The notes under the pieces are model-generated. The model saw nothing but the letters and a program-made list of their open reading frames with translations, was not told the DNA's origin and ran no database searches. A stretch of DNA of 56,647 nucleotides, filler included, from Catajapyx aquilonaris (Eukaryota): assembly GCA_000934665.2 (NCBI GenBank). It is 2 parts of 2 records of this genome, joined end to end, with 100 filler letters (N's around TTAATTAATTAA, not from the genome) between each part and the next. Parts side by side here need not be neighbours in the genome. Positions count along the whole stretch, not along the records: positions 1 to 28,138 come from KZ539251.1; 1 more part is not named here. One strand, given 5' to 3'. Within the stretch, counting starts at the first letter, position 1. Every line of letters starts with the position of its first letter. Below are positions 1 to 28,240 of the stretch, piece after piece. The translations under genes were made by a program, and so were the position numbers.

Positions 1-169
1 AGTAGGGAGCCCTTGTTCCGAATTTTAAGTTCAACTTTTGGAATGTTTTTCACAGGCTCTGATTTGACTTAAGATTCACTACCCAACCACCTTAAGATAA
101 TCCTGCCCTTCCCATTGACCCGCTTTTGGGGAAGATCCGACCCGGGGCAGCCCGCCCCTGGAGTGATTT

Positions 170-350
170 GCGAGTGCTCATCAACATTTCTCATGAAGCA
201 AACTGGATTATTTTCACTGCCTGAATCCACTAGGAGCGCTACTCATTTTCCCAGGGCTTTCCTGGAAACGTGTAGAGCATAGTTCCAGGCACACCTCGGC
301 TGTATGACTTGGTGGCACCCGACCACGCAACAATTCGTATTAGACTTTTT
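170..350 (-). pseudogene. THAP zinc-finger domain relic (P-element/Kolobok-type transposon N-terminus)
   Basis: Reverse strand reads NCCVVGC..., then after a frameshift TMLYTFPGKPWENE*RS*WIQAVK: the C-x4-C...FP...R..W signature of THAP; stops present. Confidence 0.6.
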
Positions 351-795
351 CCGAGTGTCTGCCTGCCATGGCCAACAGCCTTTCGAGGACCCAAGAACTT
401 ACAACGCTGCCCGCTAGGTGGAGATACCTCCGCGTTTTCTGGGTGTCAATAAGAAAGAGGGCTCCACGAGGGCTCAGTTGGGGTCAGTTGGTGTGGGAAC
501 TGTGGACGTTCCGGATCTTCCTGATCTGAAAACGTGCAACTTCGAAAGAGACACGTACAGAAGCACTGAAGAAACACATCCTTCTCTTATAACTTTGGAA
601 AATTAGGACGGCGGCAGGTGAAGGAGTGAAGGTCAGTATATTGCATTATTTTCAGTTGTTTTATGGATTATTACTAGAGCCCGGATTTTTAGGCAACCAG
701 GTTGGTGAATCCCTTGGTGAAACCCGACCTTACAGTTAGGATGGTTATGTGACGGGATCTATCCGTTTCATAAAGGCAGGATATTGCTTGATTGG

Positions 796-1365
796 AACTT
801 CAGCATGCTGGATTTGGTACACAAGATGAACCGCATAGAACTGCTCGACCAATTGAAACAGCAGTTACAACAAGATGAAACCATGTCCCTGAAGTTTCCG
901 AAGAAAAATCGGGAGGCCAACAAAAGTGACATTCAGGATGTGTACATCCCAACTGTTTTGCCCAGCAATGCAGAAATAGAGACCTCTGTGCTACGGGCAA
1001 AGTCTGACGCACTTCACGACGTGGAGAAATTAGGTGTCTTGTGTAAGAAGAGTCGTGCTTTCAAATGCAATCTTCCCTCGGTGCCGTGGAGCGAAGATAT
1101 CTCTGACGACGAATCTGATAGTGACGGAAAAAGCTGGGAGAGACGTATACGCGAAAGGATTCATGAATCTGAAGATTCACATGAAGACTATTATGCTTTA
1201 TCCGACGATGAAATTGAAGAGGTCTCCGGAGAAGGCCTGGAAAGTTTGTGCTCCTTGCCATCAGCCATCAGACTCAATGACGAAAAAGAGGAAGTAGCGA
1301 GTGCATTCTGCAAAATTAGAGACTCCCGTGGGGATTATTTTGCTGTAAGGAAAAAGGAATGTTAA
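796..1365 (+). mobile_element. Decayed DNA transposase C-terminal fragment (P-element/THAP9-like group)
   Basis: NFSMLDLVHKMNRIELLDQLK ... LPS..EIE ... acidic tract ... VRKK resembles arthropod P-like transposase C-termini; no termini found. Confidence 0.4.
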
Positions 1366-2111
1366 ACTATTTTCTTGTGTGTCATTGCATAAGGCCACGG
1401 TACCTTTCAATTTTAGCGTATCGTCGTTAAATACGAAATGCGTCATCTGATGTAGAGCAACTCATGACGCATTTCAGCACATTAAAACTAACCATGTCCA
1501 ATCGAGATGACCTTTTCCTTGTTTTGCAGATTCAGCCTGCCACAATAACGGGTGTGATCGCTGCCCTGTGGGCAATGGGCCAGATGTCATGGCTGCTTCC
1601 AGCCATGGCATATGTTGGGACGCTGCTGGCCATGGACGCGGGGACCTCATTGAATCTGGCCAGGGTCCCAATATTGTTGTTGGCCATTGCCTATGGGGCA
1701 GTGGCCATTGCCATCGTCACTACCATAAATTTGTGCCGTGTAAGAATAATATTAACTTACTGTATAACTGTATACGTATAGCTATACTGTAGGGTCCTAG
1801 GCTCTGCATAATAATTATGGCATAATGACATGGGTCTATAATTAATTATATTCAGCCTCCCCCCCCCACCATTTTTTTTCTTTATACCCCAACCCATTTC
1901 CTTCATCCGGGGCGAAATAATAAACTGCCCCCCCCCCCTTCTTTCTTTTTAGGAGGGGGTGATGGCGGAGGGTGTTGTGGGAGGTGTAGGGGATCCGGAG
2001 GGGGCGGAGGTGATGCCAGAGGAGATGATGGATATTGAAAGGAGTGCTGGGGAGGAGGTATATGAAGCATTATTTAATCCTTCATCCGGGGCGAAATAAT
2101 AAACTGCCCCC

Positions 2112-2335
2112 AGAAGGAGTGAACCAAGGCAAGGTCAACGACAAGGACGCAGAATACAAAGAGAAGATGGCTGCAGACTTCAACAGGAGACACCGTGCAA
2201 GGCCCTTGGAGGTGATACAACCCCAGGAGAACGTCTGGTTGCCCGACAGGGGAGAAGAAGGGCAGCATCGGATGAACCCCGATCATATCAGGTGGCGACG
2301 AAGACGGGGACCTTCCGGAGAAATGCGTCAACTCA
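2112..2335 (+). mobile_element. Gypsy/Ty3 integrase C-terminal fragment
   Basis: KDAEYKEKMAADFNRRHRARPLEVIQPQENVWLPD is the typical K02A2.6-like pol tail. Confidence 0.65.
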
Positions 2336-2659
2336 TGACGCATGACTCATGACGGGGGGGTTATTATTATTACTATTATTATTATGGTACTTTGCAATCA
2401 TAAAGTCAATGGCTGCTATACCAATGTAAACAATATGTGGGTTTTTAATAAGTTATTTGTTTCTTGTGGCAATAGATGTGTCATGACCAAAGATTTAACA
2501 TGTGCGCAAGATGCCACAGTGTTTTGTGTTTCACACACTTTTACTTTGAATCACACCTGTATCGATACACGTGCCCCGAGTCTCTCAATGATTAGCCATA
2601 AAAATGGGAAAGTATCCAATATTATTGATTTATTTGTCTTTGCCAAGGTGTATTACCCA

Positions 2660-2970
2660 TAACTAGGAAAGCAAGAAAATGCAAGACAATCCGGATGATA
2701 ATCAAGTGTTCCTTGCGAAGTTTCAAAGTGGAAAACAGGGTACTGATAGCAATCACTTGGCTGATAACGATTTCATTCTTGTCATCCAAACTCATTTCCA
2801 ACTTTGCACGATGAATGAGTTTGTTCCGGATCAGGTCCTATTTCCTGACTCAACGCAAGGGATAAAGAGTTATGATTTCCAGTAGATACGAGTATCTGTT
2901 GTTGCACGAGATGAGTTTGGTGAAATTATCCCAGTTGCATGGTGCCTCAGTGACAGGGAAGACCAAGGCC
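2660..2970 (+). mobile_element. MULE transposase fragment
   Basis: DFILVIQTHFQ...DSTQGIKSYDFQ*...DEFGEIIPVAWCLSDRED resembles the DSTHG..YDF..DE.G.G.PVAW MULE core; stop/frameshift. Confidence 0.75.
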
Positions 2971-3559
2971 TTTCTTGCAAGGAAGCATGTGGAGAGGACT
3001 TGGCAAGGTAAACTTCACAGGATAAAAAGCAAAAAATTCACAACATTTTGCTTGTAGCTTTGAAGCAGTGGTAGAGAATGGGCTTAATGATATAGACGTT
3101 CAGGTGCAAATACTATCATAAGATCCACAAGCACTATACAGAAAATCTTGAGCGACAATTCATCATCAATATGGAACTACATAATAAATTTTTTCATGAA
3201 TACAACATCCACCAAGTAGCAGGAACAATTGGACTTTTGCACCATCCTTTTCTTCAGTATTTCTTGTAGCAGTCTAATGGACCAAGAATCGTATAGTGGT
3301 AGAACCGATCATCCCACAGAAAGGCCTGACTTTGCAGACTAACCAATGAATCACGGTTACTAACGATAGCGAAGGCTGCGTAGCTTAAAAGCGGACCAAC
3401 CCTCTTTCCTCAGCGGCTTGGTCGCCTATACTACCGCCACTGCGTAGTTACTGGCAACCGTGTACAATAAAGGATTCTCGTGCAATGAGGCTTGTTAGTG
3501 GGTACCAATGTCCAAACAGACTGAACAGAAAACCAACATAACCCTAATCTAAGCAACAG

Positions 3560-3863
3560 CATGATTGATGGCCGAAAACTAACAAAGGATTGGTTTTTCA
3601 AACAACTGCAAAATGGGAAAAGGGTCAAAAGGTCATGGCTAGGTTATAGTCAAACAAAAAACGCTTCATTTTGCATTCCATGTAGGCCATTTTCACACCT
3701 TCTAACAGACACAGAGTCAAAATTATTATTATTGGATAAAGCAGAAGGGTGGGTGCATTGGAAGAAGCTCAGTGACAGGATTCCAGACCATGAAAATTAC
3801 CAAAACCATAAACGTTGGTTTTTTACCTGGAAGACTCTAGAATCCTCAATAGCAATGGATTGA
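3560..3863 (+). mobile_element. hAT (ZMYM1-like) transposase N-terminal TTF-type zinc finger fragment
   Basis: WFFKQLQNGKRVKRSWLGYSQTKNASFCIPCRPF...G..HWKK..DRIPDHEN..NH...W. Confidence 0.75.
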
Positions 3864-3864
3864 T

Positions 3865-4172: not shown

Positions 4173-4459
4173 ATCATCTAATAGTAAGCATAGTGCGTGC
4201 CTACTACGAGCCCTTGCACTAACCCTATTTTTGACATTGCAACCACCACAATATTTCTGTAGCCCGGAGGCTGATATCCGTTTAATCCCAGCCTTTTGAG
4301 CGAGTACGTCACTATGGCAGGAGGCATGACGTCACATGGCGGTGGCGGGCGGACATGGCGGGGGGGNNNNNNNNNNGATACTGGGCTTCATCAAACTTGG
4401 CAAAAAAGCCTCTAAATTGAAAGTCGTTCCAATACCACTGTACCACCCAACTGGTACAG

Positions 4460-4892: not shown

Positions 4893-4921
4893 TCATTATA
4901 CTAAAAATGGCTTTATTTTAG

Positions 4922-6652
4922 CTCTGGGAGAAAACCTTGTCCACCTCCATGGAAGAGGCTGGACGAGAGGAGCAGAAGCTTGCCATTGAAGCGGGCCGTA
5001 TATATCGAGGCAAGCCCTGCACAAGAGTGGTCGTCGATAGGGGCTGGTCACAACGTTCGTACGGTCACAGGTATTCGGCCTTCTCCGGATGTGCCGTCAT
5101 AATTGGGTTTTATACGGGAAAGATCCTGTTTCTGGGGGTAAAAAATAAATACTGTTCTGTATGTTCCCAATTAGAGAGGCAGGGTAAAGACCCATCAAGG
5201 GTAAATCACTTGTGCTTTCGGAACTGGACCGAAAGTTCAACAGCGATGGAATCTGCCATTTTGGTGGAGGGCTTCCAACGCAGTTCCGAAATGCACGGGA
5301 TGATTTACAAGGAGTTCGTTGGTGACGGTGATTCGAGCGTTTACTCTGATCTCATGAGTAAAGTCTCATACGGCCTCACATACAGAAATTTGAGTGTGCT
5401 AACCATGTTGTAAAGAACTTTACTAAGGCACTTTACAACCTGTGTAATTTGGCACTCTACAAAAAGGTGGTAACTAAAGGTCCATTTGGTACTATCGCTG
5501 TTATGAAAAATGGTGCACGCTTAGCCATCAGGTGTAATGCTGCCCAAGGCGGCAGTCCCACACAGCTGCGAGAGGCTCTCATGGCAGTTCCAGAGCACGC
5601 TCTGGGTTTGCATGTGAAGTGTTCTTCTTCTGTGTGCCGAAAGGCAGGGACTACCGAAGAGAACAGCATTTACCTGAGGACTGATTTTGATTCTAAGAAA
5701 ATTGTGACTGGCATCATGGCAGCAGTCAGGTCCATGGCAGTCAAGTCCGACAGACTGTGCCTTGATGTGACAACTAACACCGCCGAAATGTTTATGCACC
5801 TGGTTGCAAAATGTGTCGGCGGAAAACAGGTGAACAGGTCGCAGCAGGGTTCCTACAACCGTCGATGCTATGCTGCGGCCTTGAGTCACACACATGGTCC
5901 AGAGTGGCACAATGTGGCATACAAACATGCCACATCTGTGAGCCCTGATGTAGTTGTTTAAAAAATGTTGATGCAGCGAAGGAAACAATTAGTTTACGAA
6001 GCCAAGAGGCGGCGTGCAGATGATGGCACCTCAGGAAACTTGGCCAAGCGGCGTCGGCTTGTATTTGATAAGGCACCCGAGCTTCCAGGGTCACAGGGAG
6101 ATCAGTTTTATGGTTCTCATCCCATAGACGTTGACATCTCAGAGGCCGAGATGAAGCGCCTGTGTGATGAAGAACTGGAAGACTTGTCTCTGAATGAGGA
6201 AGCAAGGAATCAGCTCGAGGAGAAGAGGTCAAGCGGATAATCCTCTCTGGTTCGAGGGCCGCAAAAAGAGACTGACCGCCTCTTCCTTCGGAGAAATCTG
6301 CAAGATGCGCTCTGACACCTCCTGCAAAGCGTTCGTGCGCCGTAAGCTATACCAAGCTAGTTTTAGCACTGCTAGCACTAGCTATGGTATAATGAACGAG
6401 TCTCACGCTCTCCTTGCTTACGAGGTTCAGAGGCCCCTAGCAGTTTTGCAGAAAGAAGTAAGGCTGTTCGTCCATCTAGAGCACTGTTTCCTTGCTGCCT
6501 CTCCTGACGGGCTGGTTGGCGATGATGGCATGGTGGAAGTAAAATGTCCTCATATGGCAGAAGGCATGACCATCGCTGACGCCGTGGCCAAGTTTCAGAA
6601 AAAGTATCATTTTTGTTTGGAAAAGGACGAAAAGGTACCATTGTACTTGTAA
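4922..6652 (+). mobile_element. Decayed Mutator-like (KolobokE/Phantom-type) DDE transposase followed by YqaJ (lambda-exonuclease-like) domain
   Basis: VVDRGWSQRSYGH, NKYCSVC, CFRNW..SS.AMES, VGDGDSS, ECANH, TTN.AE; then RLTASSFG, YGIMNE, FLAASPDG, EVKCP; broken by frameshifts and a stop into four ORFs. Confidence 0.8.
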
Positions 6653-7177
6653 CGGTAATACCGTACTTCACTCCACTTGCCCTCCCTCCTTCAATACATC
6701 CAGCCTAAAACAGCCAATCTATACATACGACCCTGTCATATCCTAGCTCTCCCTTATATTGCCCCCCACCATTCTGTTCAATTCTTGCTCTTCCCACCCA
6801 TAAAAACTTTCCCCAAACTTGTACACTGAACGACAACACCCTATTGCCCAACTTATTGCCCAAACGGTTCCTCCTAAAAAGACCACCTTCATCTTGACCT
6901 CGCTCGCCACCCCCCTCCCCCTTAGTCTTTAGGGGTCCTCCAGTTTTCTCTGGGCCCTTTGTAGGCAGTCTGGATTTCATCCCCATCCAGTTACCACCCA
7001 TCCTCCTTCTCTCCTCCCAAATCTACACCACCATCACCTATTCCTCCCCTCCATATACTTCGTATTATTTAGTCGTTTACGCCAATACATTTCTGTTATC
7101 CCACACTACTCTCGATTCCATATTTATTCCCCCCTCCCCCGTGACACTTATGCGTTTGTCCAGTGAACCCAACTAAG

Positions 7178-7710
7178 TGTTACAAAATGGCGCCCTTTTT
7201 CCCGCCTCGCTCCTCTAGAATGCCCAATGTGCATAGTGTGGTGTCAGCTTCGCCTCAGACTGCATCGAGCGCATCATCCTGGTCCATCACAGCAGCGGTG
7301 CCAGGTGATGCTGGGAGGACCCCTCTCAAGGTGAGGAAACCTCGAGCACGCGGGTGTGCAAGTGCGGCGAATGGCCCCTCCAGTGCCGGCTCGGATCCAG
7401 CATCCGGATGGACCGTGACCTCCATCCCGACCCTTCAACCCAGGGATCAACTCAGATCCGCCCTTGGGCTTGCCGACGCCTCCACCGAAGACGTAGCCGC
7501 CGCGGTACTCTCACTCAGTTTACTCCCCAACAAGGAGCCCGCACCTGGCATCTCCCCAAGCAGCATAACGTCATCTCTGTCACATCATCACGCCGGGTTA
7601 CCGGCCTCATCACCCCTGATCAGGGTACCGACGTTCACCCCCAGAACCGACGACACCGTCGACGGGTTCCTCGGTGCATTGGAAGACTTACCAGACTGCA
7701 ACCGGGGTAC
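7178..7710 (+). mobile_element. Possible LTR-retrotransposon 5' part (PBS-like TGGTGTCAG, gag-like fragment)
   Basis: TGGTGTCAG at about 7239; VPTFTPRTDDTVDGFLGALE is gag-like; weak. Confidence 0.3.
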
Positions 7711-7984
7711 CAGACTCCCACATGCTAAGTGGTCATCTCCCCCGCCATGCAGGGAGTGGCCAAACTCTGGCATCCCACAAGCCACAACCAGTGAAGGAAA
7801 GGGTCTCGGCAATAAAACACTTATGGCGGTGGGTTACCCCTTCTTTCAAACCAAGCCCACCCTGAGTCTGCTTCCCACAACGCTCCATCCTTGCCCGAGG
7901 TCAAAACGACTCTAGCGCCATCTAGGCGGATTTTCCGCGAACTGTTTGCGGCTGAATCGGGACCTTAAAATCGCGTGGTGGTTT

Positions 7985-8290: not shown

Positions 8291-8299
8291 TCGTTGAGT

Positions 8300-8660
8300 G
8301 CATCTGAAAAGTGCTTGAGCATTGCTGCGGACCGACTCATGGTGGGCTCAAGTGAAGTGTTTCAGTGTTCATCCAGAATCCCTAGAAGCTTCATTGCAGG
8401 CCTTCTACATGACACACATAGACAAACCTGTCAACACCCTGAAGAGTCTACTGATGACCACACTTGTGCAGAGTGCCAGTCCAGATGAAGAATGGCATGA
8501 AGCTAGAGCTGTCAGGCTGTCTAGCACAAAAGCTCATGCCGTTGTGATCCGCCGGAAAGATTTTGAGAACCTTGCTCAGAGGTTCATTCGCAAGCAGCCT
8601 TTTGGAAATGCGGCCATGCGGTATGGACTCCTCAATGAAAAGGTTGCCCTAAAAACCATT
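8300..8660 (+). mobile_element. YqaJ-like recombinase/exonuclease domain fragment of a DNA transposon
   Basis: Q....EWHEARAVRLSSTKAH...FGNAAMRYGLLNE; truncated by an LTR-like piece at 8661. Confidence 0.7.
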
Positions 8661-8971
8661 TGTGATACAGTATGGCGCCTCATCCGCCGCAGGGACCCCG
8701 CAGTGTGGCTGGCGCCCCTAGTGGAAGAGGAGTGGTGCCCCGCTCTGGGGCGCGGCGTGGTGGGCGCCGTCGCTCTGCTACTGCAAGGGTCGTGGTGCCA
8801 GCGGCGGCGGGTTGGACGAGAGAGAGAGAGAAGGACTGGCGACCAGGGCGGACGCACTGTTGAGGGGTCTCTCGCTGTACAGATTTCTCTGAAGGAATAA
8901 ACGTGAGTAAAACGGACTTCAGAGTGTTTACTTGCATGCGAGAGGTACGAGTCACCCCTTCCTGCAATACA
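8661..8971 (+). mobile_element. Solo-LTR-like element
   Basis: TGT...ACA ends, AATAAA at 8896; its 3' ~60 bp (8896-8958) recur at 21589-21650; TSD not clear. Confidence 0.55.
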
Positions 8972-11850: not shown

Positions 11851-11974
11851 GGAAATGGCTGTGACCTCTATATTGTTAATGCGAAATAATGAAAATAACG
11901 TGAACGTACACGTCATCAAATAGGATTTCATAATTCAAACACCACACGCAGTGGAAAAAAAGATGGCCGCTATG

Positions 11975-12305
11975 AGGTGCGGGATTCGGTGATTGCTCTG
12001 CAGAGATGGTGGCGTTCGGTGCGGGGAAGAAATGCCACATTGCGTCCGGAAACAGTCAAGAAGTGTCATGCAAAACTTATGACCACAGGTTCGGTTGCGG
12101 ACATCCACAGAAGTGGCCGTCCATCCACTTCCCGATCTTCCTGGCTGGGACGACGAGGACCTCATGAATGGGCTGCAAGAAGTCCAGATCTTACTCCCTG
12201 TGACTGTTTCCTTTGGGGATGGGCAAAGGAGGAGGTGTACCGGACAAAACCCCCTACATTGGAACAACTGGAGGCACGGATTCGCGACGTTATCACCAAT
12301 GTGTA
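11975..12305 (+). mobile_element. Internally deleted Tc1/mariner (DUF4817-HTH type) transposase
   Basis: N-terminal ...KLMTTGSVADIHRSGRP joined directly to C-terminal WLGRRGPHEWAARSPDLTPCDCFLWG.AKEEVY. Confidence 0.8.
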
Positions 12306-12597
12306 CTACTTCCAACAGGAGATGCTGAAGAGGCTCGCTGACCATCTGTCTGATTTAAAGAAGGTGTTTTACTTCACATACGGATCAACGACCCAGTATA
12401 AAAACCAGAAATGTTTCCGCCACCTGTGCCTTCACAAGGCTCACTTCGAGTTGCATGCCGAGTGGCATTTCTTTGCCACCAGCCATGGCAAAGGGCCTTG
12501 TGATGGCATATGTGGAACTGTAAACGCCCTGGCTTCTCGAGCAAGCTTGCAGAAGACGAGTGGTGGGCATATCCTGACACCGAAGAAGCTATTATGA
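12306..12597 (+). mobile_element. Sola2-like transposase fragment
   Basis: YFTYG.TTQYKN...EWHFFATSHGKGPCDGICGTV. Confidence 0.7.
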
Positions 12598-12879
12598 CTG
12601 ATGCGTCGATTCACTGGATGGTTGGCTGCCTTCTGCAGGATTGGCAAAATATGCAAAACAAATGGAAGAGAGCTTTTCCGAGGCAGCCACAATCCCTAAA
12701 ACCAGGCAGTGGCAATGGTCCATTCCGCTGGATGAGAAAGTTTCAGCCACATCCAAGAGCACCTCGATAAGGAAAAAGAAGAGAAATGAAGCCATACAAG
12801 ATTTATGACTCAGTCAAGTACCCTACCTGCCGGTTTTTTCTTTCATAAGTGGTGTGCAGTCCCAAAACACATTTTAACG

Positions 12880-13120: not shown

Positions 13121-13779
13121 AGATCGGCATGCTAGCAAAATTACTCGACCTGCAGGTGCACCACGGCGGAGCAAAAAAATAATTGCAACGTGTGAGGCAG
13201 GAAGAACGAGATGCACGAGAGAGGTAACTGAATGGCAAACAATATGGAAAGGTCGACATTATTGCAAGTATGCCATATGCAAGTATAATGTTGTAATTTG
13301 TAAATTAGCTACAGCTGCTATTGGACTTTCTCATTGGCATTTGGGAGGCATTAGTTACTACAATCATCATTGTTCACAGTTGTGAAGATTCTCTTTACAA
13401 ATGTGACATGTTTATCACTTTACTTGTACCATAAAAAACTATTGTTCTCGGATGAACATAAATGGTTACAATATTAATTGTCATAATAATAAAATTTCCT
13501 TTGTGGGTGACATATGCTGCTGAACTTGCTGTTTAGTGAATTTAGAAAGTAATAAATAGGCACTGCTTTATTATTACTTAGAGCACACCAATACGACACA
13601 AAGATACGATGATGATAAAGAAGAGGATGCGGATGGCAAAGAGGACGAACAGGACGAAGCAGACGAGGCGGAGGAGGATTGTTTTCTACAAGATGTTGAG
13701 AGAGTTGGTATTGTAAATGACCACGGCATCGCTTTCAAGGGGGCTACAGAATTTTTCAGCGGTGGTAGCCAGGCTTTTT

Positions 13780-15240
13780 ATGAAGGGGCACCAATTACTT
13801 CAATGCAGAGTGTCATTGCTATTATGCTCTTTTGCACTGAACATAACCTAACGAAAGCTGATATGAATGACCTATTGACACTTAAAGATCTTCATTGTAG
13901 GCCACCTATACGGAAGCCCTGGGGTGCAACCCCCCTCACACTTTCCCCACACACCCACACAAACATTACGCGCACACATTCATTACACCACTCAAGTTCA
14001 GCCACACATTTGGTTGGCGGGCGGCGAGGCGGGCAGCGCGAGTAGGCCTCAAAGCAAGAGGAAGAGGCACTCCGACTACAGAAAAGAATAACTATCCTCG
14101 AGAAAGAGCCAGAGAAGTAGAGAGCAGGCAGGTGTACAATAATTATGCCGTACTGCTCTCAATGCGGATTTTTTTACTCCGCCTAACTTCCCCGGCCGCT
14201 TCTGCGGGGGGTGTGGAAGGCCGGTTACTAATTCGCCGGTCGGTGGCGGACAAGCAGCATCAGGACAGGCCCCCATGCCGGCCATGCGGCGACCCGCCCC
14301 GAGAAACGCACCTGGTCAAGTTCGTGAATTCTGACGCTTGCATCATCATCATCTAACCAGGATTTTTCCCTCTCTCTGTTGTCTAGTTCTGCTTTAAAAA
14401 ATAAATAGATAACCTTCCCATATGTGACAAAAGTGGAAAAAAATACATGCCGTAAATATCACCTGGATAGACACATGGCAGTAATTGTTCTGGGACCGGA
14501 AGAGCAGTACCGTACATATCGACAAACAATGATCCACACGTGATTGCTGGTTATTACGCTAGATGCATTCCGTCCGTGTCCCAAATGTCTCATGTACTCA
14601 AGGAAACTTTTTTACAATCATGTCCTTGTTGTCAGGAGTAGAACAGCTCAAATTAATTCTAGAGCGGCCGAAGATATTTGAGAAAATCATGAGTGAAATA
14701 TAAAATGTCAGGAGAAACACAGCAACTTACATCAGTGACATATATGATGGCCTAATTTATAAAGCGGTTCCAGGAGAACATTACCCATGACAAAAACACA
14801 ATCTCCTTTATGTGGTTTACCGATGGTGTGCGAATGTTCAAATCATCAAAAGTAACGCTCTGGCCAATGTTCCTGCCTGTACTCGAGCTCCCATTTGCAC
14901 TGAGATTTTTGAAAGAGAACATCCGGTTTGTGGGTTGGAGAATCAAAGCCTGACATGAATACATTTTCCCAGTATTTCCAGGATTTTATAAAGAACATGA
15001 AGAGAGGTATACAAATCGTACAGGATGGCTTCAGGTTGACAATAAAGGGGCATATCATTTGTGGGACATGTGATCTACCAGCCAAGGTTTCTGCTCTCAA
15101 TATGGTGCAATTCAATGGAGATTTTGGATGCGCAAGGTGTCTACAAAAAGGCACTTCAGTAAAAAGTGATAAAGGAGGACATGTATATGTATATCCATTT
15201 TTGGAAGAAATTGAACCGGCGTTTACACATGTAAGCGATT
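13780..15240 (+). mobile_element. CACTA/EnSpm transposase relic interrupted by other sequence (~13897-14600)
   Basis: LFCTEHNLTKADMNDLL; ISDIYDG; WFTDGVRMFKSSKVTLWPMF; KPDMNTF; CDLPAK...QFNGDFGCARC. Confidence 0.8.
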
Positions 15241-15249
15241 TGACAAGCG

Positions 15250-16190
15250 ACGTCATCGCCGAGTGACGAACCGATAGCAGACAAGGTGCAGAGGTTGCAA
15301 TCTACGTACCCAAACACCCCCATTTCATACCCAGCAGTGAGATCACAGTGCCAGGCACCCAGGGGACGCTGAAAGCAGTGGCGTGCTCCGTCAGACTCCA
15401 AGGCCGCAGCATCACGATAATAGGATGTTACCGCCCCCCAGTAGCGGACGGCAGCGAGGAGGAGCTTACAAGGGTCCTAGCACAGTGCCAAGTCCAGAAG
15501 ACAGACAACCCAACCAAATAATAGTATGTGGAGATTTCGAAGCCCACAGCAGCTTATGGGGCGGACCTGAAACAGTACAAGATGCCTTCGGCCACGTGCT
15601 GAAGAAATACTTGCGACCCACGACTTGGTGGCTCTAAACGACGGAAGGCCCACCTACTATTGAGTAAATCCCCCCGCATCCTCAAGCCTTGACATAACGG
15701 TGATCGGCAAGGAAATCTCACTCGATTACACCTGGGAGGTGGAGTCAACCAATGGGGGAGTGACCACTCCCACACCTTCCTTATACCAACTCGCTCCCCA
15801 AAAAAGAAGGCTGGGCGAAACATGGAAGATATACCAATTACACAAGGCAATTCCAGGATGGCGTCGGGGACCTAAGCAGGCCGGAAGAGGCAGACCTCCA
15901 TAGAAAAGCTAACGTCATCACTATGGCCATTGCAGGAGCGGCAGCGAGGGCAAAAATGTCGATCAAACCCCCTAAGAAGTACTTATCCGCCACCTCGTGG
16001 AATGCAGTCTGCGCAAGAACAAACGTAACCTGAAGAGGCATTTAATACAGGTGCATAAGCAGGAGGTACAGGCGGCATCCCTGCCGCACCGGCAGCTCGA
16101 CTTAATACAAATATGTTCTTGGAGTCTTACCACCAGAAACTGAAGTACATCATGACCAGACGTTTGTACGCAAGAGGTATGGAGAAAGAG
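15250..16190 (+). mobile_element. Non-LTR retrotransposon APE endonuclease fragment
   Basis: IIVCGDFEAHSSLWG, LNDGRPT, SLDIT, WGSDH; frameshifted. Confidence 0.75.
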
Positions 16191-16214
16191 CAAACATGAA
16201 GAAGCGTAGCTGCT

Positions 16215-16837
16215 ACTAGAAGGAGAAGCAGCTGGAGAAAAGTGCTCCAGGAAAGAATAAGATTAGGAGTGGAGGATGGCAGGAGACAAGGCCGAAAGCG
16301 CAGGTGGAAGGAAGAGGCCCGCAGGATGGAGCGGGAGGTGGCGCAGCTGAAGAAGGACGCGGAGCAGGCAAGAAAGGAGACGGAGGAAGCGAGGAGGGAG
16401 AGAAAGAGGCCAATCGGAGGAAGCTGATTGACTGGGAGGATAGGAGCAGGAGGGACAACCTGGTCATCAGCGGGATCCCTGAAGAGGCGGAGGAGACATG
16501 GGCGAGGACGGAGGAGCTGTTGAAGGAGATGGCGAGCGGAAGGATGGGCCTAACCTTGCGGTCCATCTCCCGCGCACACAGAGTGGGGCCGAAGAGGGAG
16601 GGGGTGGACCGCAAGGTGGTGGTCAAGTTTGATGCTGGGAAGGAGACGGAGGCCATGCTGCGGGAGAAGGTGAAGCTGAAGGGGAGTAGCATTTATGTCG
16701 ACGAGGACTTCTCACTGGCGACCCGGGAGGTGCGCAGGCAGCTCTTCCGGGTGGCACGGGACTGGAGAGCGTCTGAAACCCCCAGCACTGTCAGGGTGGA
16801 CAAGCTGGTGGCCGGGGGGAAGTGGTACTCGCTATGA
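16215..16837 (+). mobile_element. LINE ORF1 (L1TD1/Transposase_22-like coiled-coil + RRM) fragment
   Basis: Coiled coil, then EDRSRRDNLVISGIPE, RAHRVG, VVVKF, LKGSSIYVDEDFSLATREVRRQL. Confidence 0.75.
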
Positions 16838-16844
16838 GCTTCCA

Positions 16845-17100: not shown

Positions 17101-17289
17101 CAAGTGGTCTTCTTCCCCACCACCACTGCATTATACACCACCCTGTTCTATTGCTGCATCATCAGGTGTTAACGATGTCAGCGTATGTCTGTCTGTTCAA
17201 GTCATCTCCCGAATGGCACAATGTCGGAGGCGCAAAGTAACTCGGTGGAAGCACTTCTTGGAGCCGTAACATAAAGCTTGAAGACAAGA

Positions 17290-17620
17290 AGCACAGTTCT
17301 GTTTGGTGTCCACTGCAAGACTACATGCCAAAAACCAGGAGGACTTGCACAAGGCAGCAGTAGAAGCCTCATGTGACAGCATCGCCAACGGCTATCGTGA
17401 CTTTGTCAGGTACCTCCAAGATTTGCTGGGAAAGGCTGAAAAGTGGCCTCTGTCTTTCAAGCAGAAGCTGCCGACACATGGCAGCAATACAAACAATATC
17501 GTGGAGTCCGCCTTTAAAGTCCTCAAGAAGGGTGTACTGCTCAGGACCAGGACTTATTCTATCCCGGAACGTTTTTTTTTGTAACCGAAACTCTGAGTCA
17601 AGTTTACTCTGTTGCCATAT
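17290..17620 (+). mobile_element. MULE transposase fragment
   Basis: FVRYL....EKWPLSFK..LPTHGSNTNNIVESAFKVLK...RTRTYS (TNN..E motif). Confidence 0.7.
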
Positions 17621-19284: not shown

Positions 19285-19588
19285 ACTGTTTCGTTAATCG
19301 CAAAATAAATGATGCCGGATCAAAGGTTGAATTGTTGAAAATCAAATTGATGCGTTTTAGCAAGGACCAACCGGGCATAAAGGAGTACAAGTATACCCAC
19401 AACGAATATGTTGACTTTGAAGATATGAATCTGAACAAGCGGACGACCTTCCAACCTAGGATCACTAACCCTAAACTGCATGTATCCTGGTCGACACCTA
19501 ATCTCTGTTGAGAAGAAGGACCTCATGTGTCTACTTGACTATGTACCACCTAAGTATGACATGTATGACATGTTTTACATTGATTTAA
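19285..19588 (+). mobile_element. Sola1-like transposase C-terminal fragment
   Basis: KIKLMRFSKDQPG...YKYTH...LYPG...KKDLMCLLDYVPP...FY..L; interrupted at TTAA by the Kolobok element. Confidence 0.5.
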
Positions 19589-20731
19589 AGGGACACTCCA
19601 CTCAAAAAACAAGTTGACCTCTAAAAATCAGGCAAAAAATCATGATTCCGAGAATGCGATCCGTTTATCTCTGAGACGAACGCTAATGACATGGGAAGTG
19701 ACGAAAGTCGGAAAAAATTCGAGGTCTGATGGAGAGTGGCGCCGCCTTCCTCACCTGGCAGCTGCCTCAGGAAGTAGGGATCGTAGCCGCGCGGGTTTGA
19801 AAAAATGCAGTTCGGTGGGATATTTCTGGCTGCTGCCAATACTGTCACGGAGGTGTTACTTTCCAGACCTCGCCTTTGCTTGGCTCCTAATTGTGTACAG
19901 GTGGGCTACATCATTCTGTTGCTGCGGCATCAGATCCCCGTAAAATTGGAATTAGTCATTGAAACAGAGCCATTAGCAATCTTCTGGCCCCAACACATAT
20001 TAGCTGCTATTCTCAATCGCGTCGCGGTTATTCCAAGATGGCGCAGTCCAGCGATTCTGTCGGGCCCGAATGTACGGTAATGGAAAATGATAGTTCGCGA
20101 TCTAGTATGGAGGCTGCCGAGGGAGATAGCTCCGAACAGTCCGAAGTTCCAGGCTGCCTCCGACCCAGTCCACATGGGATCCTCCCTTATCAATTCGAGC
20201 CGTGCGAGGGTGAGGAGCAAAACACTGCCCAGAATGACGGCCTTTTGTCCTACGCCCTCCACCATATGCCGGAATGAAAGCCAGAAATGACAAGCGTAGG
20301 ACCTACCCACCCCCTGCCCTAGTGCTAAGCATAAACATGTGTCGCCTTCCAGTCGTTCCCTCCGGGCCTTTATTAGTCTTGGGGATCTGATGCGTAAGCA
20401 ACAGATGTAGCCCACCGGTACCCAAGCAAAGGCGAGGTCTGGAAAGTAACACCTCCGTGACAGTATTGGCAGCAGCCAGAAATATCCCATCGAACTGCAT
20501 TTCAAACCCGCGCGGCTACGATCCCTACTTCCTGAAGCAGCCGCCAGGTGCCCGGGGTAGGTGTCGCCGGGGGTGGAGGGGCAGGGGGTTTGCAGCCGGC
20601 CTACTTTGCCATTTATTTATCGGATTATCGCTCGCCGTAGGAAAAAAAACAAAAAAACATGGTTATCACCGGAATCAGGATTTTTTGCCTGATTTTTAGA
20701 GGTCAACTTGCTTTTTGAGTGGAGTGTCCCT
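19589..20731. mobile_element. Non-autonomous Kolobok-type DNA transposon (TTAA TSD, AGGG...CCCT termini, long internal inverted repeats)
   Basis: TTAA 19585-19588 and 20732-20735; ~62-bp TIR AGGGACACTCCACTCAAAAA.CAAGTTGACCTCTAAAAATCAGGC...; second inverted pair about 19760-19935 and 20383-20542. Confidence 0.9.
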
Positions 20732-21411
20732 TTAAAGACTGTGGACCCAATGTCTGGGAAGTAGTGTATGACAATATTTAGCACTCAATGTGATTTGGTT
20801 AAGATTTCCTTATGCCCAACAACACTTATGCCTAAGTGAACTATATCATTGTTGTGGCAATTCTTCCGACCCCTCAAGCTGGCTGGGTCCCGCCTTCTGG
20901 TTTCGTCGGGGTGGGGCCGAAACTGCCCGAGGCCCCACCGGCGCGGCGCCTCCTGCCGCCCCTTCACCGAACCCGGGTGTTGCCGTTCCTCCTCCGTCGG
21001 CTCCAATCCTGGAGCGGGTGGAGGCCGCACGCCTTTAGCTGGCGGCCGCCCAGGACCTTTTTGAGAAGATGCTCAAGCTCGTCTCTGCTCAACCGGTGGC
21101 CGCTCCTTTGGCCCGTGATCCGGCTGGTACTGAGGCCATGAGTGTGGAAGAAGAGAAGCAGCTAATCCAGTAAGCTGGGGCACCCTTCACCCGGCCATAT
21201 ATACGGACGAGAACTGTGTTGCAGTAGTGATTGTTTTTTTTATTATTAAACCAGTGTGTGGGGTGACCTCCCTCCCCTGTTGGGGGTCACTTTCCTATTT
21301 AGTCGTTACCCCTCCCGTCTTTGTTTTTTGGGTTTGTGTGTGTGTGTCTTGAGGTGTTCCCCCCCCTCCTATCTTGCAATTTTTGTTTTCTTTTTTCTAC
21401 TTTTGGTCCGG

Positions 21412-21674
21412 TGTAACCATAATGAGACACGCTCCCCCACCCCCCTCTCCTCCTATGTTTGTTCTTTCCCTTCCTTTTTTCCCTGTGGTGCCTCTTGGGA
21501 TGGGTGGGAATAAAGGAGAAGCTGAGGCTGAGCTGACCAAGGTGGACGCTTTCTGGGATCCGTGTCTGTATTCGGAGGGGTTGAGAGCAATAAACGTGAG
21601 GAAAACCGACGTCAGAGTGTTTACTTGCATGCGAGAGGTACGAGTAACCCAGTGATAAAACAATATAACCAACA
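21412..21674 (+). mobile_element. Solo-LTR-like element related to 8661-8971
   Basis: TGT start, AATAAA 21589, shared GAGTGTTTACTTGCATGCGAGAGGTACGAGT. Confidence 0.45.
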
Positions 21675-22199: not shown

Positions 22200-23800
22200 T
22201 TGGATGTTGTGTGTGAATATCCAAAGAAGTGTGAGGACTGTGGTCAGTCACATAAAAGCAGGAAGACTGTTATGGCTCATATTAAGAAAACCGATGCCAG
22301 GCTTTGAAGAATTACTCTCAGTTGGATTGTCATGATAATCCTGAAGTTGGTAGTACTCCGATGACACGATGTGAAGGGGAAAGCAGCTGTGATGCTTTCA
22401 GTGCAGAGCACCTTGAATTTAAGAATATGGATGAATTTTATCTGTGACAAAAGAAAGAACAGAGAGAGACGTATACGTGTTACATCAAGCAATCCGGTCC
22501 AGTTAAGATGATAGGGGTCGCGTATCATTACTTTAAATGTCTTTAATGGGAGGCCAGAGAAAATTCACCGTAGAAAAAATGAGCCACCTCGCAAGACTGA
22601 TAAAACTTGGGAGAAAAGTAGAGTTGGCCAAAAGTCTAGCCGGCACTGTAGATGACAATGGTGTGCATGTAAAGTTTACCAGGGAGCACAGCCATGAAAT
22701 TCCCCTAAGTTTATGAAATTATTCCGCCTGCCTAAAAGGGTACTGGCATATATTAGTAGCCAATTTGATTTAGGTGCATCTGTAACAGAAATTCATAAGC
22801 AACGTCTTGGGCCAGCTGGGTATTTGAACAACCGCGATAAACCCATGAAATACACACCAGAGCAATTATTACTTTCACGTACCCGATTAAGTACTCTCCA
22901 AAGGAACTATATTAAAGCTAATCCAAACATTTCCGAGCAGGAGCTACAATGGTGTTTCACTTCCAAGACGAATGTAAAGATAAAAGCCGATTCATATATT
23001 TCAAGCCACAAGGAGACAGTGAAGATAGGAGACATTGTGAAGATTGGCGACACGACGCTCAATTTACCGGATGATTTGTTTGCAATTGATTCAAACGCGG
23101 TAAAAATTGGAAATGATGAAAGAGGGTTGCAAGCATATTCCTTGTGTAGAATCCACTCATGGAACCACTGCCTATGGCTTTTATTTATATAATCTGAGTG
23201 TACCAGACAAACATGGGAAAGGTTATCCTGTTGCACACTTTATTTCTAGTTGTAAAAGCCAAGCAACAGTGACCATCATGTGTAGCAGGATAAAATCTAG
23301 GTGCCCAGATTTACGCATTAATTGTCTCATGACCGAAGATGAGCCAGCTATTTACAATGTCATTTTGGAAACTTTCGGTTCAGAAACTAAACATCTGTGT
23401 AAATTTCATGTGATGCAGAACTGGGATCGGTCATTGTCAAAATATGACATTGCTGTAGAAGCACGGAGAGATTTACTGTCTGAGGGAAATACTAAATTAC
23501 CCTGATTTTTCCAGGTTTAATTGTGGCCTTAATGACTTGATAGAAGCTCTTAAGTGAGTGTGCTTCTAACTTCTTTGCTTTCTTCAATACCAACTACGTA
23601 TGTTCGAAGGCAAAACCTGTGGGCAATGTGTTTCAGGACTTTCCCACATGAGAAGACTGACACCAATAATAATTGTGAGGCATTCCATAGTATGCTAAAA
23701 AAAAGATTATTTCGGCAAAAAGGAGAATGTAAGAGTTGACAAATTAATAGAGATTCTTTTGGAAATTGAAGCAGCAAATTATGTTAATTTGTTCACCAAA
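22200..23800 (+). mobile_element. Decayed MULE transposase with N-terminal C2H2 finger
   Basis: CEDC...H; EHSHE; CVESTHGTTAYGF...VPDKHGKGYPVAHFI; LMTEDE; LCKFHV; WAMCFR...TNNNCEAFHSMLK. Confidence 0.85.
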
Positions 23801-23939
23801 ACTCGTGTACTCCCAAGAACTGAGATCATGCACTAATGTAAAGATTAAATGCCGCCATGGCAAGGGAATGAATACTCCCCATTCAGGTAAGAGAATTGGA
23901 CAGTGACTGACTCGGCATGACCCAGAGGACGAAGGTAAG

Positions 23940-24321
23940 TTAGTGCACTATGCTTATCGTCTGTGTAGTACACCTTCTTCAAGTCACAAAAGAAGCCAAA
24001 CATATTATATTTCCCACGCGTGGTCATTCTTTTCTGCCTAATGATTCCGACTTCGCCCTCATTGGAAAGAGAAAGAAAGGAACTGTTGCAGTTGATATCC
24101 CTGCAGAGTGGGATAAAATAATCACGTCTGCACGATCACACCTTACACCATTTAAGATCGTACATGTTGATCAGGACATGATTTTTGACTTCAACAAAGC
24201 ATTGGCACCATTCTGCCAAAAATCTGCAAATGCCAAGCTTCGATTGAAGCAAGTGCGCATTGTTAAAGAGATGTGTGACACTGACAGTCAGTCTGCTCTG
24301 ATCCACACAGCACATAAGTAA
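23940..24321 (+). mobile_element. Sola1-like transposase fragment
   Basis: HIIFPTRGHSFLPNDSDFALIGKRKK...P.EW..II..AR...PF. Confidence 0.7.
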
Positions 24322-24997
24322 TTACCTGCTCTGAACTTAACACCACGAGCATGTGATCGGAATAAATCAGCATAGTTTTCTACCAGTAGCAAAATAAATG
24401 GCATTTTTCTGCATCATACTTGAATTTCTGGAGACACATTGCCATGCACTTTTGAGATAGCTAGGTTACAAAGACAGATAAGAAGTGCCAGATAAGAGTG
24501 CTCGAGAGGGGTAGATAAGGGAGGAGGAAAAAAACAACAACAACAGATAAGCACGGACGTACACACACACGTGTGTGTGCACAACCGCCAATGTTTTTTA
24601 ACGTGATGGTACACAGTATTTTTGTTCCAGTACACAGTATTTTTGTCGCTACTGTCTTGTAACTCGAGATGTATTCCACTCTGGCTGAAGTCGGCACTAG
24701 CCGAGGAGTGCGGAGGATCGCCCTATATCTAGATTTGTCTGACACCGTCTCCGGCTGCTTCCAGCATGGCAGTTTTTCTGACTTACTCTAGAGGAGATTT
24801 TCAAAGCGTCGTCGAGGGTTGGGCAAAAGACTGCAGCGATGACGGGTTCTTCTCTTCTATACTGCTGTACAAGAGGTTCAATGCCAGAGCGTGAGCTGAG
24901 TGGACGTGCAGAAATTGAGCTCCTGCCAAGGCCGATCGATACACGTGCTGGGTCGTTCACTGGTTAACTGGCCAAATGGGGGTCTCGAAGGAGGAGA

Positions 24998-25420
24998 CAT
25001 TGTAATGGCATAATCAAAGTCAGTGTCTCAGTTGAGCCCCACTGAACCACTGCTTATGCCGGCATTCTGATTTACACCCGGGGCAATTGGCTCTCTAAGG
25101 GCTGCTGAGCCACATCCAGACAAGAGAGACGGGGATTCGTCTGAGAAAGATAAAATCTGGCATCGAGTTGTGAGATAGGGCTAGTCATCCCAGGATCTCT
25201 TCACTGGAGACGAAGGACTCTGAAGTGCACAGGAGACGAAACTTGAGTAATGCAGCAATGTGTCATATCTTTTAATGGGGGAGCCAGACACTGTTAATTT
25301 CACCAGACACTATAGAGAAAATGGAAAGGAAAGGGAGGCAATGCTGCCCGAAAAGGTGTGAAGTTGAGGGGCAGCCCGGTGTGTATAGACGAGGACTTCA
25401 GTGTGGCAACCAGGACTGTC
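24998..25420 (+). repeat. Direct repeat copy 1 (LTR-like ~25001-25313 + LINE ORF1 scrap)
   Basis: Closely similar to 26845-27320; lacks ~50 bp present in copy 2. Confidence 0.9.
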
Positions 25421-25526
25421 AGAAGGGAGCTGTTCAGGGTGGCCAAGAAGTGGCGGTCATCTGCCCCGATTGTCACCGATTGTCACAGGGTGTATAAAAA
25501 AAACAGGTGCGCACAAGAAATAAGGG

Positions 25527-26045
25527 GTATGCGTGCACACTCTGTAAAAGGCGCATTTTTGGACACGGCAATGTCATGAGGCAGGAACGTGCACGAACGT
25601 GCCTGAAGGAATTGTCGTGTACCATTTGCGGGAAAACTTTCCGTCACCAGCACCACTAGGAGGTACATCATAGGTCTCACTCGAAGGAGAGGCCGTACCG
25701 TTGCCAGTAATGCGATAAGGCATACAAACATCAACATCACCTGGAGAGCCACAAGAAGAAGTGTCATCACTTAGGGTAAAGTAAGGTTGGATGGCAAATT
25801 TTCCAAACAATTTTTTGTACGAAGTTAGGTTCACCATTTCAACCAAAGTTTTGGGCCAATATCATTTTCGGTGTGGAAACCCCAGCCCGTAGACTTGAAA
25901 GGTGCTGGGGACAAGGTCTTTCGCTCCTTGGCGGGGGCCAAGCAGCACGAACAAAATAACGTATGTACACGCAAGCAGGGGGAACAGTGCCAACTCCGCC
26001 AAAGGTACTTTTTTGGTCACGGCAATATCATGAGGCAGGGACCAG
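25527..26045 (+). pseudogene. C2H2 zinc-finger gene relics (two paralogous pieces)
   Basis: YACTLC...FGHGNVMRQ...SCTICGKTFRHQHH*EVHHRSHSKERPYRCQ*CDKAYKHQHHLESH; second piece ...CQLRQRYFFGHGNIMRQ. Confidence 0.7.
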
Positions 26046-26059
26046 ACCCGCTCCTCTGA

Positions 26060-26500
26060 AGACACCTTGAATGTTAGTGACCCCAAGTCCAAGTTGGAAA
26101 ATGAGTGCCTCCATGACAGGTGCAACCTTTAAAATTTGCCAACTTTGTTAAGGTCTGTACGAGCGCTATTTTGAAGCCTTTGAGCCTGTTGCTGAGTTGG
26201 CAGCTCAGTATGGCCACGGTCGCCCCCCTACCACTGCATGTTAAACCCTATTGAGATGATATGGTCTCAAATCAAAAGAAGAGTTGCTGTTCACAATATT
26301 CGCCAACAACAGCTGGACAGTGTAGTGCGTTTATGGGAAGAGAGCATGAGGGTAGTGACATCTACACAGTGGCAAAACTGTCTCACACATTGAAGTTGAC
26401 TACTTAAAATTGCAACCGGCCGACGACGAGGCCCCTCGCCTTCAATTTATCGTCACGGAAAGTGCCGATTCCCATTCACCTATTGACAACGAAATTGGGT
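26060..26500 (+). mobile_element. Tc1/IS630-like transposase C-terminal fragment
   Basis: PPYHCMLNPIEMIWSQIKRRVA..N.....V..LWEE...VT..QW.NC..H. Confidence 0.75.
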
Positions 26501-26844
26501 ATGAATAATACAATTCTCCGAAATTCCTTGACTATCTCGGATTTCTCAAATACTCTGTAAAAAGTACATGACTTAGATGGTACCATTGCGAAACGAAATT
26601 CTTTCATCTCCACATCAAGTTTTTCTTTAAATGGCTGTTCCCGGGAGATTGAGGTTGAGCAAGCGATTTATTCATTTTCTGCAGTAACATAGTCGAAACC
26701 GCTAATAATAATTCCAAGCGTTAATTCCAGCCACCCAGAAGTGCCTGGCACCTTTCCCATGCTCCCTAACAATCAACTGCAACAGGGATTGTGGTACAAT
26801 AATCAACATGATGCACTTACACCGAAAGAGTGATATGTTCAAGG

Positions 26845-27320
26845 CATTGCAATGGCATAATCAAAGTTAGTGTTTCAGTTGAGCACCACTGAACCACTGC
26901 TTATGCCGGCATTCTGATTTACACCCGGGGCAATTGGCTCTATTAGGCCTGCTGAGCCACAGCCAGACAAGAGAGACGGGGATTCGTCTGACAGTGAGAA
27001 AGCTAGGATCTGGCATTGAGTTGTGAGAAAGGGCTAGGCATCCCAGGATCTCTACACTGGAGACGAAGGACTCTGAAGTGCACAGGAGACGAAACTTGTA
27101 ATCTCTTTCCCCTTTCTCCTGTGCTCACATTTATTGACTACTTCTTGAGTAAAGCAGCAATGTGCCGTATCTTTTAATGCAGGAGCCAGACACTGTTAAT
27201 TTCACCAGACACTACAGAGTAAATGGGAAGGAAAGGGAGGCGATGCTGCTTGAGAAGGTGAAGTTGAGGGGCAGCCCGGTGTATATAGACGAGGACTTCA
27301 GTGTGGCAACCAGGACTGTC
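26845..27320 (+). repeat. Direct repeat copy 2 (LTR-like TG...TACA ~26848-27216 + LINE ORF1 scrap)
   Basis: Same composite junction as 24998-25420; KVKLRGSPVYIDEDFSVATR. Confidence 0.9.
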
Positions 27321-27967
27321 ATGTCAATGTCCATTTTTGAGTCATTTTTTTTTTTATAAATAAGTTGAAGCAATGGTGAAATCAGTGTTCAGTTTGCCAT
27401 CATGATGCAATGTGGCGCAATGTTGCGCAAGTTTACGTCAGCAATGTGAGCGGGAACTTCTGGCGACGTCGCTGTTGCAGCTGTCGCTGCGACAACAATG
27501 CTTGGTGTACATTTAGCAGAGAAGATGTGTGACCTGTTCTGCCTTGGAGGTGATGTCCAAGCAGGGTGAACATTGGTGACTCCTCCCATGAACAATTTTC
27601 TGGTGAACCAGTTGTGCGGCAGCAATCAACCAGACGGAATGAAGTTGCAGCCAAACCAGTGTCAGTCAAAAAGATGAGAAGGTGCAGTTCACATGAATCA
27701 GCCTTTTGGAGGTGTTGTGTGTGATCAGCAGGAAGCCGTACACAAACTATGGGGTGGACCTTGCGGTCAGCGTGCGGCAAACACTTGCATCGATACCAGT
27801 CTTTGACTGGGGTATAGGAAGTTGGCCTACCCTCTTCCGGTGTGAGCCAGTAGAAGTGGTGTGGTCCGGCTGGATGGGAAAGCTCAGGGGCCCTGCCCAA
27901 GCTATCCCCCCGTTTTTGACTACACGTGCTCGCACCTTCCGTCCATGGGTCCTCACCTTGTGTTCCA

Positions 27968-28038
27968 CCTCGGTATACGATGATCCTGTCGGGGTAACAT
28001 GAGTTGACCTCATGATACTTCCGAAGGGCTTGCATCAT
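27968..28038 (-). pseudogene. Short PIWI-domain (Piwi/Ago3-like) gene fragment
   Basis: MMQALRKYHEVNSCYPDRIIVYR(G) resembles the PIWI-clade AL.KY.E.N...P.RIIVYRDG segment; only ~23 codons. Confidence 0.6.
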
Positions 28039-28138
28039 TCAGTGAGTGATCCACCTCGGAGTAAGTCCGTTGGGACGACTGGGGAACTGTTTTAAATTCT
28101 TTGCCGTTACTCTTTAATACTTTATCTGCATTTTACCT

Positions 28139-28238: not shown

Positions 28239-28240
28239 TT

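Follow-up and report, generated by a model that had tools for sequence, protein, structure and literature searches.

We examined positions 1-28138 of a 56,647-base window from the genome of Catajapyx aquilonaris (the window being the whole stretch of DNA analysed, in which all coordinates are given), a region that a preliminary description had presented as a plus-biased mosaic of transposon fragments without an intact host gene and as a candidate source locus of PIWI-interacting RNAs (piRNAs). All stop-to-stop open reading frames (ORFs) of at least 60 amino acids, 353 across the window, of which 198 lie in 1-28138 (97 on the plus and 101 on the minus strand), were searched against Pfam at E ≤ 0.01, and known proteins and structures were aligned to the stretch. 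The mosaic, the lack of a detected host gene and the one-way plus orientation all held up, but the counts, the sizes, the abutment and the statement on cores and ends had to be corrected. Host-type signals on the 198 ORFs of the stretch were confined to a weak zinc finger and a 25-amino-acid Piwi-like piece. At least 28 kb are visible, cut on the left by the start of the window and on the right by runs of N from 28139, so that the end at 28138 given earlier is merely the point at which an N run begins. In the whole window, N runs occupy 4367-4376, 28139-28182, 28195-28238 and 45464; the structure at the boundary between array and genes is odd, with exactly 44 bases twice and 12 bases between them.

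We find support for 16 transposon-derived pieces, all on the plus strand, rather than the roughly 30 fragments first proposed; 12 count as independent loci after merging, and two are leads only. Most pieces derive from cut-and-paste DNA transposons (MULE/Mutator, Tc1/mariner, CMC and likely hAT), and pieces of long interspersed nuclear elements (LINEs) and of unnamed families are also present. At least seven unrelated families are present with few copies repeated, and decay differs greatly among the pieces. The 16 pieces are listed first, followed by the remaining features of the stretch and its right-hand boundary:

2667-3045, plus strand: MULE-a, a MULE-type transposase remnant covering the front half of the MULE domain (tblastn with 54 of 150 MULE-set proteins, best E 2.9e-17)
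3525-3860, plus strand: hAT-like N-terminal piece, lead only (Atlas top score 0.97, clusters with 12-18% PF14291 DUF4371 members)
4922-5958, plus strand: Mutator-like transposase remnant in two frames (Pfam PF20700, repeated with read-through)
6194-6649, plus strand: YqaJ-type exonuclease remnant (Pfam PF09588, E 2.6e-11, again with read-through)
8319-8897, plus strand: second YqaJ-like piece (BLASTP against ORF 6194-6649, E 2e-5, 17 of 57 residues identical)
11944-12300, plus strand: transposase copy of Tc1/mariner type (DDE_3) whose catalytic middle is deleted (relatives and alignment)
12301-12657, plus strand: fragment from an unnamed transposon-like family of P0032 type (P0032 residues 75-185 of 362 aligned by tblastn, E 5.5e-30)
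13767-15245, plus strand: remnant of a CMC (CACTA/Chapaev-type) transposase, frameshifted and interrupted by a 0.67-kb gap (relatives and tblastn)
15341-15773, plus strand: LINE endonuclease remnant (Pfam Exo_endo_phos_2, E 3.1e-4 over 15341-15634, below its cut-off; E 2.4e-3 with read-through)
16220-16834, plus strand: LINE ORF1p-like remnant (phmmer against PDB, LINE-1 ORF1p 2ykp, E 1.1e-3, query residues 52-175)
17303-17569, plus strand: MULE-c, a third MULE-type piece, rear part of the transposase (tblastn with 20 MULE-set proteins, best E 6.9e-4, a looser threshold)
22557-23809, plus strand: MULE-b, a MULE transposase remnant (Pfam MULE E 1.2e-9, ZSWIM1-3 RNaseH-like E 6.9e-9, tblastn best E 4.6e-38)
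23944-24318, plus strand: DUF7869-like piece, lead only (Atlas top score 0.95, clusters with 27-73% PF25273 members)
24995-25463, plus strand: repeat copy with an ORF1-like tail (91% direct repeat of 26842-27321; 25322-25463 matches 16636-16775, E 4e-14)
26196-26390, plus strand: weak DDE_3 (Tc1/mariner-type) piece (Pfam PF13358, E 2e-3, below cut-off; absent with read-through)
26842-27321, plus strand: second ORF1-tail repeat copy (27224-27314 matches 16636-16726, E 1e-13)
27958-28032, minus strand: Piwi-like, exon-sized piece of 25 amino acids (phmmer against PDB, 8 of 8 matches PIWI-clade, best 7yfy at E 0.007; Pfam Piwi E 0.22, profile positions 132-158)
19584-20736, orientation-neutral: foldback-like element with long inverted arms (81, 67 and 51 nucleotides at 96-99%; 76% over 318 nucleotides overall)
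28139-28238, no strand: two 44-base N runs with 12 bases in between, the right-hand limit of the finding

The Pfam MULE match of MULE-b lies on ORF 23104-23502 (819 relatives at E ≤ 1e-3). MULE-a is a separate copy, since it matches the same protein positions as MULE-b, and the same holds for MULE-c, whose protein positions overlap those of MULE-b. The Mutator-like remnant is divided between two frames, with PF20700 matched at 4922-5410 (E 1.2e-43, profile 118-265 of 357) and resumed at 5362-5958 (E 1.3e-9, profile 269-357); it and the YqaJ piece at 6194-6649 are possibly parts of one element. ORF 8319-8897, the second YqaJ-like piece, had no match in Pfam or PDB searches.

ORF 11899-12594 brought together two unrelated families. 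Of 403 candidates, 116 were related to it at E ≤ 0.01, including 351-amino-acid proteins that carry DDE_3 and HTH_32, and P0001, which carries DDE_3. The copy aligns to a 351-amino-acid relative as residues 3-73 plus 269-351 and is therefore of Tc1/mariner type, without the catalytic middle. Shorter public relatives share its right-hand deletion breakpoint, so that the lineage of this deletion derivative seems to be widespread. At about 12300 the mariner copy passes in frame and with no spacer into the unrelated P0032-type piece, inside a single 232-amino-acid ORF; no Pfam family was found for P0032, P0044 or P0059, and a PDB search with ORF 11899-12594 returned coiled-coil noise only. For the CMC remnant, ORF 14913-15263 has two relatives with PF02992, which we take to be Transposase_21, namely P0117 (spider; PF02992 and PF06869; E 4e-26) and P0118, and tblastn aligned residues 164-475 of 729 over three frames (E 4.7e-46). 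Within the LINE endonuclease remnant, the motifs at 15408-15773 are presumably endonuclease-like. The two leads come from Atlas, a feature search, and were left outside the 12 loci; DUF4371 is presumably linked to hAT, and Pfam gave no match on 3525-3860 or 23944-24318.

These pieces range from 0.2 to 1.5 kb, several of them measuring 0.7-1.5 kb (for example CMC at 13767-15245 and MULE-b at 22557-23809) and so exceeding the 200-600 bp first given for most fragments. Direct abutment is shown for the single junction at about 12300 only. The description that coding cores are kept while ends are lost fails for the Tc1/mariner copy, which is the opposite case, its ends kept and its catalytic middle gone; the description probably stems from which parts are recognisable to a reader.

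Several candidates were left uncounted: an integrase tail suspected at ORF 2029-2349 (none of 125 candidates at E ≤ 0.01), 16089-16358 (two proteins matching in a low-complexity tract), and zf-H2C2_2 at about 25.66 kb, DUF2195, Zf_2nd_IFT121 and TNP-like_GBD (E 0.25).

Orientation of the remnants

Transposon-type Pfam families occurred on six plus-strand ORFs of the stretch and on none of the 101 minus-strand ORFs. Four of the six matches exceeded the curated Pfam cut-offs (Mutator twice, YqaJ and MULE), and Exo_endo_phos_2 and DDE_3 fell below theirs; the sole minus-strand match was a sub-threshold zinc finger, unrelated to transposons. Relaxing the threshold to E ≤ 0.5 revealed no transposon-type family on any of the 46 minus-strand ORFs of at least 80 amino acids. 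When the six frames were translated in 2.1-kb pieces with stops read as X, transposon families appeared in 5 of 42 plus-strand translations versus 0 of 42 on the minus strand, in a scan of low sensitivity that missed the mariner, CMC, MULE-a and weak DDE_3 pieces.

Mapping 268 fetched proteins (150 listed MULE proteins and 118 others) onto both strands by tblastn gave seven merged places at E ≤ 1e-3, all on the plus strand and all inside 1-28138, and at E ≤ 5 noise that was symmetric (74 plus and 69 minus places in the stretch). MULE-a and MULE-c were turned up by this strand-blind route, and both lie on the plus strand. For a sign test we merged the Mutator remnant with the adjacent YqaJ piece and counted both copies of the ORF1-tail repeat as one, which left 12 loci; all 12 are on the plus strand (calculated by hand, two-sided p = 4.9e-4), as are both Atlas leads. 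The preliminary count was of about 25 pieces on the plus and about four on the minus strand; every piece supported here is on plus, and we found none of the four.

Comparison of the stretch with itself yielded seven direct and three inverted pairs, the latter comprising two self-palindromes and the foldback. The direct repeats include a 0.47-kb pair (24995-25421 and 26842-27321), copies of the ORF1 tail near 16.7, 25.4 and 27.3 kb, and a repeat of 65 bp that occurs at 8893 and again at 21586, so that, apart from the foldback, the interspersed repeats are all direct. Because the families are unrelated and few copies are repeated, duplication does not explain the one-way layout. AT skew is +0.055 in the stretch (22 of 28 one-kb bins positive) and −0.046 in the flank (4 of 28 positive), and is carried mostly by the annotated third of the stretch. 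A codon score comparing sense with antisense, trained on host genes of the flank, was positive for 12 of 13 known plus-strand pieces and nevertheless proved uninformative: unannotated ORFs were mostly positive too (32 of 36 on plus, 18 of 24 on minus), because long ORFs lack stop-like codons.

Other features of the stretch and the neighbouring genes

The foldback-like element, 1.15 kb long, has arm blocks that are 96-99% complementary and looks far younger than its surroundings. It alone was convincing among 27 inverted pairs, none of which supplied inverted termini around an individual piece. A C/T-rich low-complexity tract lies at 6700-7200, the 6-8 kb bin having a G+C content of 0.53 and a GC skew of −0.18, and is followed by a Pro/Ser-rich ORF of 256 amino acids (7145-7912), which is longer than any other in the stretch, has no family and is probably non-coding. 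Tandem repeats are unremarkable, and neither Rfam nor tRNA scans found an RNA gene in the stretch.

At the gap the remnant array changes sharply to ordinary genes. The flank, 28239-56647, holds a channel-like ORF, EF-hand exons on the minus strand, three kinase genes and a phosphoglycerate kinase gene, and no transposon Pfam match at E ≤ 0.01 was found on its ORFs of at least 60 amino acids. The channel-like ORF (28187-29692, plus strand) is intron-free, encodes 502 amino acids and has a weak ligand-gated-channel match; inverted paralogous pieces of it lie at 43653-44247 and 52479-53832 on the minus strand, with 94% identity across 294 bases in one case. A small family of receptor-like genes thus seems to surround the kinase and phosphoglycerate kinase genes. 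The interval from the receptor-like gene to the EF-hand exons contains about 950 bases (31009-31962) that match their own reverse complement at 78%, forming a large palindrome or hairpin. The genes with tyrosine/serine-threonine kinase domains are three tandem copies on the plus strand, each in several frames (38516-39872, 46773-47826 and 49534-50637). The phosphoglycerate kinase gene (41080-42745, plus strand) is spread over five consecutive ORFs, which together match Pfam positions 14-379, with changing frames and hardly any spacing, as would result either from very short introns or from a frameshifted copy.

Origin of the one-way layout

Co-orientation of this kind is explained poorly by chance, though the selection of the window matters. 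As the likeliest reason why unrelated families should all point one way, we tentatively favour a unistrand piRNA source locus to which the stretch would belong. One long minus-strand transcript would start to the right of 28138, would carry the remnants in antisense, and would be cut into piRNAs against the families from which the remnants derive. The transcription, its direction and the processing are what we infer; in their favour, the strand-symmetric tests agree on the plus strand, the repeats are direct, AT skew has a consistent sign, and the stretch borders a gene-rich region.

A number of observations weigh against such a locus. About two thirds of the 28,138 bases carry no annotation and only about one third does. 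Pfam missed the mariner and CMC pieces on the plus strand, so remnants on the minus strand may likewise be hidden, and its silence there is therefore weaker evidence than it looks; moreover, the database queries were picked from plus-strand ORFs. With 316 windows of the genome looked at, a single one reaching a p of about 5e-4 could well arise by chance. The polyadenylation-type motif AATAAA is not depleted on the minus strand (16 seen against 8.5 expected, standard deviation 2.7). The expected 5' end and promoter site of a minus-strand transcript fall in the assembly gap, and the visible part, at least 28 kb, is small beside the flamenco-like (flam-like) loci of Drosophila. Finally, the Pfam scans of ORFs and read-through translations found no Gypsy or other long terminal repeat (LTR)-type domain on either strand (reverse transcriptase, integrase, gag, protease or env); by the criteria of the Drosophila work (PMC10643416) the stretch therefore falls outside flamenco-like clusters as strictly defined, whether or not it functions as one.

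Alternatively, the stretch could be a long intron, or the tail of the transcription unit, of a host gene on the minus strand, from which sense insertions were purged for their splice and polyadenylation signals while antisense insertions, here those on plus, survived. An antisense bias of intronic transposons is established. The Piwi-like piece at 27958-28032, the only coding-like piece on the minus strand, speaks for such a gene: it matches Piwi profile positions 132-158, shares 64% identity with the PIWI domain of Piwi-like protein 2, and is directly followed by a consensus-like splice donor, CAAG/GTGAGG, with the cut after CAAG. However, it reads YRGG where Piwi proteins have the YRDG whose D residue is presumably catalytic, as a dead copy would, and a motif scan found no further Piwi exon. 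Nor did any other Piwi or host exon emerge on the minus strand of 1-27957, 36 minus-strand read-through translations (1-24100) and six more (24001-28138) being without a family. Strand bias in introns tends to be moderate, and DNA transposons show it weakly, whereas every supported piece here is on plus; and a receptor-like gene on the plus strand begins immediately to the right of the gap. We consider an intronic origin, the leading alternative, unlikely. The Piwi-like piece itself may be a stray exon left by a dead Piwi paralogue, or else the margin of a gene that the gap interrupts.

An ordinary, neutrally accumulated transposon nest would owe its one-way appearance to chance and ascertainment, that is, to few independent events, to queries picked on plus and to the many windows screened, 316 in all. 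Only four matches exceed Pfam's own cut-offs, and if neighbours belong together (Mutator with YqaJ, mariner with the P0032 family, and the LINE pieces), the independent events may number between eight and ten. Yet eight out of eight would still give p = 0.008, the strand-symmetric methods found nothing on minus, the strand-blind MULE-a and MULE-c are nevertheless on plus, and the repeats are direct, which makes a neutral nest, in our judgement, rather improbable.

It is distinctly improbable that the pieces were moved or assembled together, either by a composite mobile element (Helitron-like or Pack-type capture) or by template switching. The in-frame joining of mariner to an unrelated family in one ORF at about 12300 would fit such an event, and individual pieces lack terminal inverted repeats, but this is the single junction shown to abut and the decay of the pieces is very unequal. 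No pair of termini encloses the stretch among the 27 inverted pairs (Helitron termini were not searched for), and no Helitron-type helicase or Rep domain occurred in the Pfam scans of ORFs and read-through translations. That host genes captured transposase domains and contributed the fragments as their exons, in a tandem cluster of fusion genes, is scarcely credible in spite of acidic ORFs at 721-1362 and 13560-14042, because frameshifts and stops break single domains (the Mutator profile between positions 265 and 269, and CMC over three frames), and the acidic ORF at 13560-14042 belongs to the CMC transposase itself.

If the stretch is a unistrand piRNA source, it would extend one-strand piRNA traps beyond flies and mosquitoes, with a content made up mostly of DNA transposons. 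The one-way architecture would then be separable from its supposed link to retrovirus-like Gypsy elements, and strand bias of any transposon class would provide a sequence-only search rule for loci of this type in poorly studied arthropods. If small RNAs proved absent, a dozen remnants would be fully co-oriented without piRNA function, a warning for predictors that use strand bias only. A wider proposal, which we regard as somewhat doubtful, is that a non-insect arthropod genome has several unistrand piRNA clusters, the stretch among them, whose material is chiefly remnants of cut-and-paste DNA transposons and LINEs rather than endogenous retroviruses; the flamenco-style trap would then be a general arthropod defence not tied to Gypsy, and the decayed Piwi exon with its intact donor, lying at the presumed 5' end, could be the first exon of the precursor.

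Comparison with known systems

Dual-strand germline clusters such as 42AB are graveyards of mixed families, including non-LTR and DNA elements. The present stretch resembles them in its mixed transposon families and differs in that every supported piece lies on one strand; PMC10643416 describes the insertions of dual-strand clusters as having reduced strand bias. With transposon-filled long introns the stretch shares a co-orientation opposite to the host transcript and one exon-like Piwi piece on the minus strand, but a further exon was not detected, and the bias, moderate in such introns, is complete here.

The flam-like loci of Drosophila are defined by antisense enrichment of Gypsy/LTR elements that bear env and by substantial size, were sought with a genome scan in 100-kb bins, and were validated by small-RNA sequencing (PMC10643416); flam-like unistrand clusters of Drosophila are reportedly also treated in FlaHMM (PMC11400887). 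Like flamenco and the flam-like loci as portrayed there (PMC10643416), the stretch is a gene-poor mosaic of remnants with near-complete co-orientation that adjoins ordinary genes, and the same mechanism would apply, one long transcript antisense to the remnants. Unlike them, it has no detected LTR-type domain, is dominated by DNA transposons and LINEs, is visible over 28 kb, and is known from its sequence alone. Measured against the defining features of flam-like loci, the stretch is thus remnant-rich and gene-poor with a strong strand bias, and without antisense Gypsy/LTR enrichment.

Outside Drosophila, Aedes aegypti reportedly has a single unidirectional flamenco-like piRNA cluster that holds viral remnants (PMC7161354). 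The stretch shares with it a one-direction arrangement in an arthropod other than Drosophila; the mosquito cluster was reportedly described through viral elements and small RNAs (PMC7161354), whereas Pfam scans of ORFs and read-through translations detected no viral domain in our stretch. Our literature search found no paper that describes, for chelicerates or any other arthropods outside the insects, unistrand clusters in which DNA transposons predominate; this does not exclude that such clusters exist. Unistrand clusters are already known in flies and from at least one mosquito example, and what sets the Catajapyx stretch apart is, at best, its unusual DNA-transposon-dominated content.

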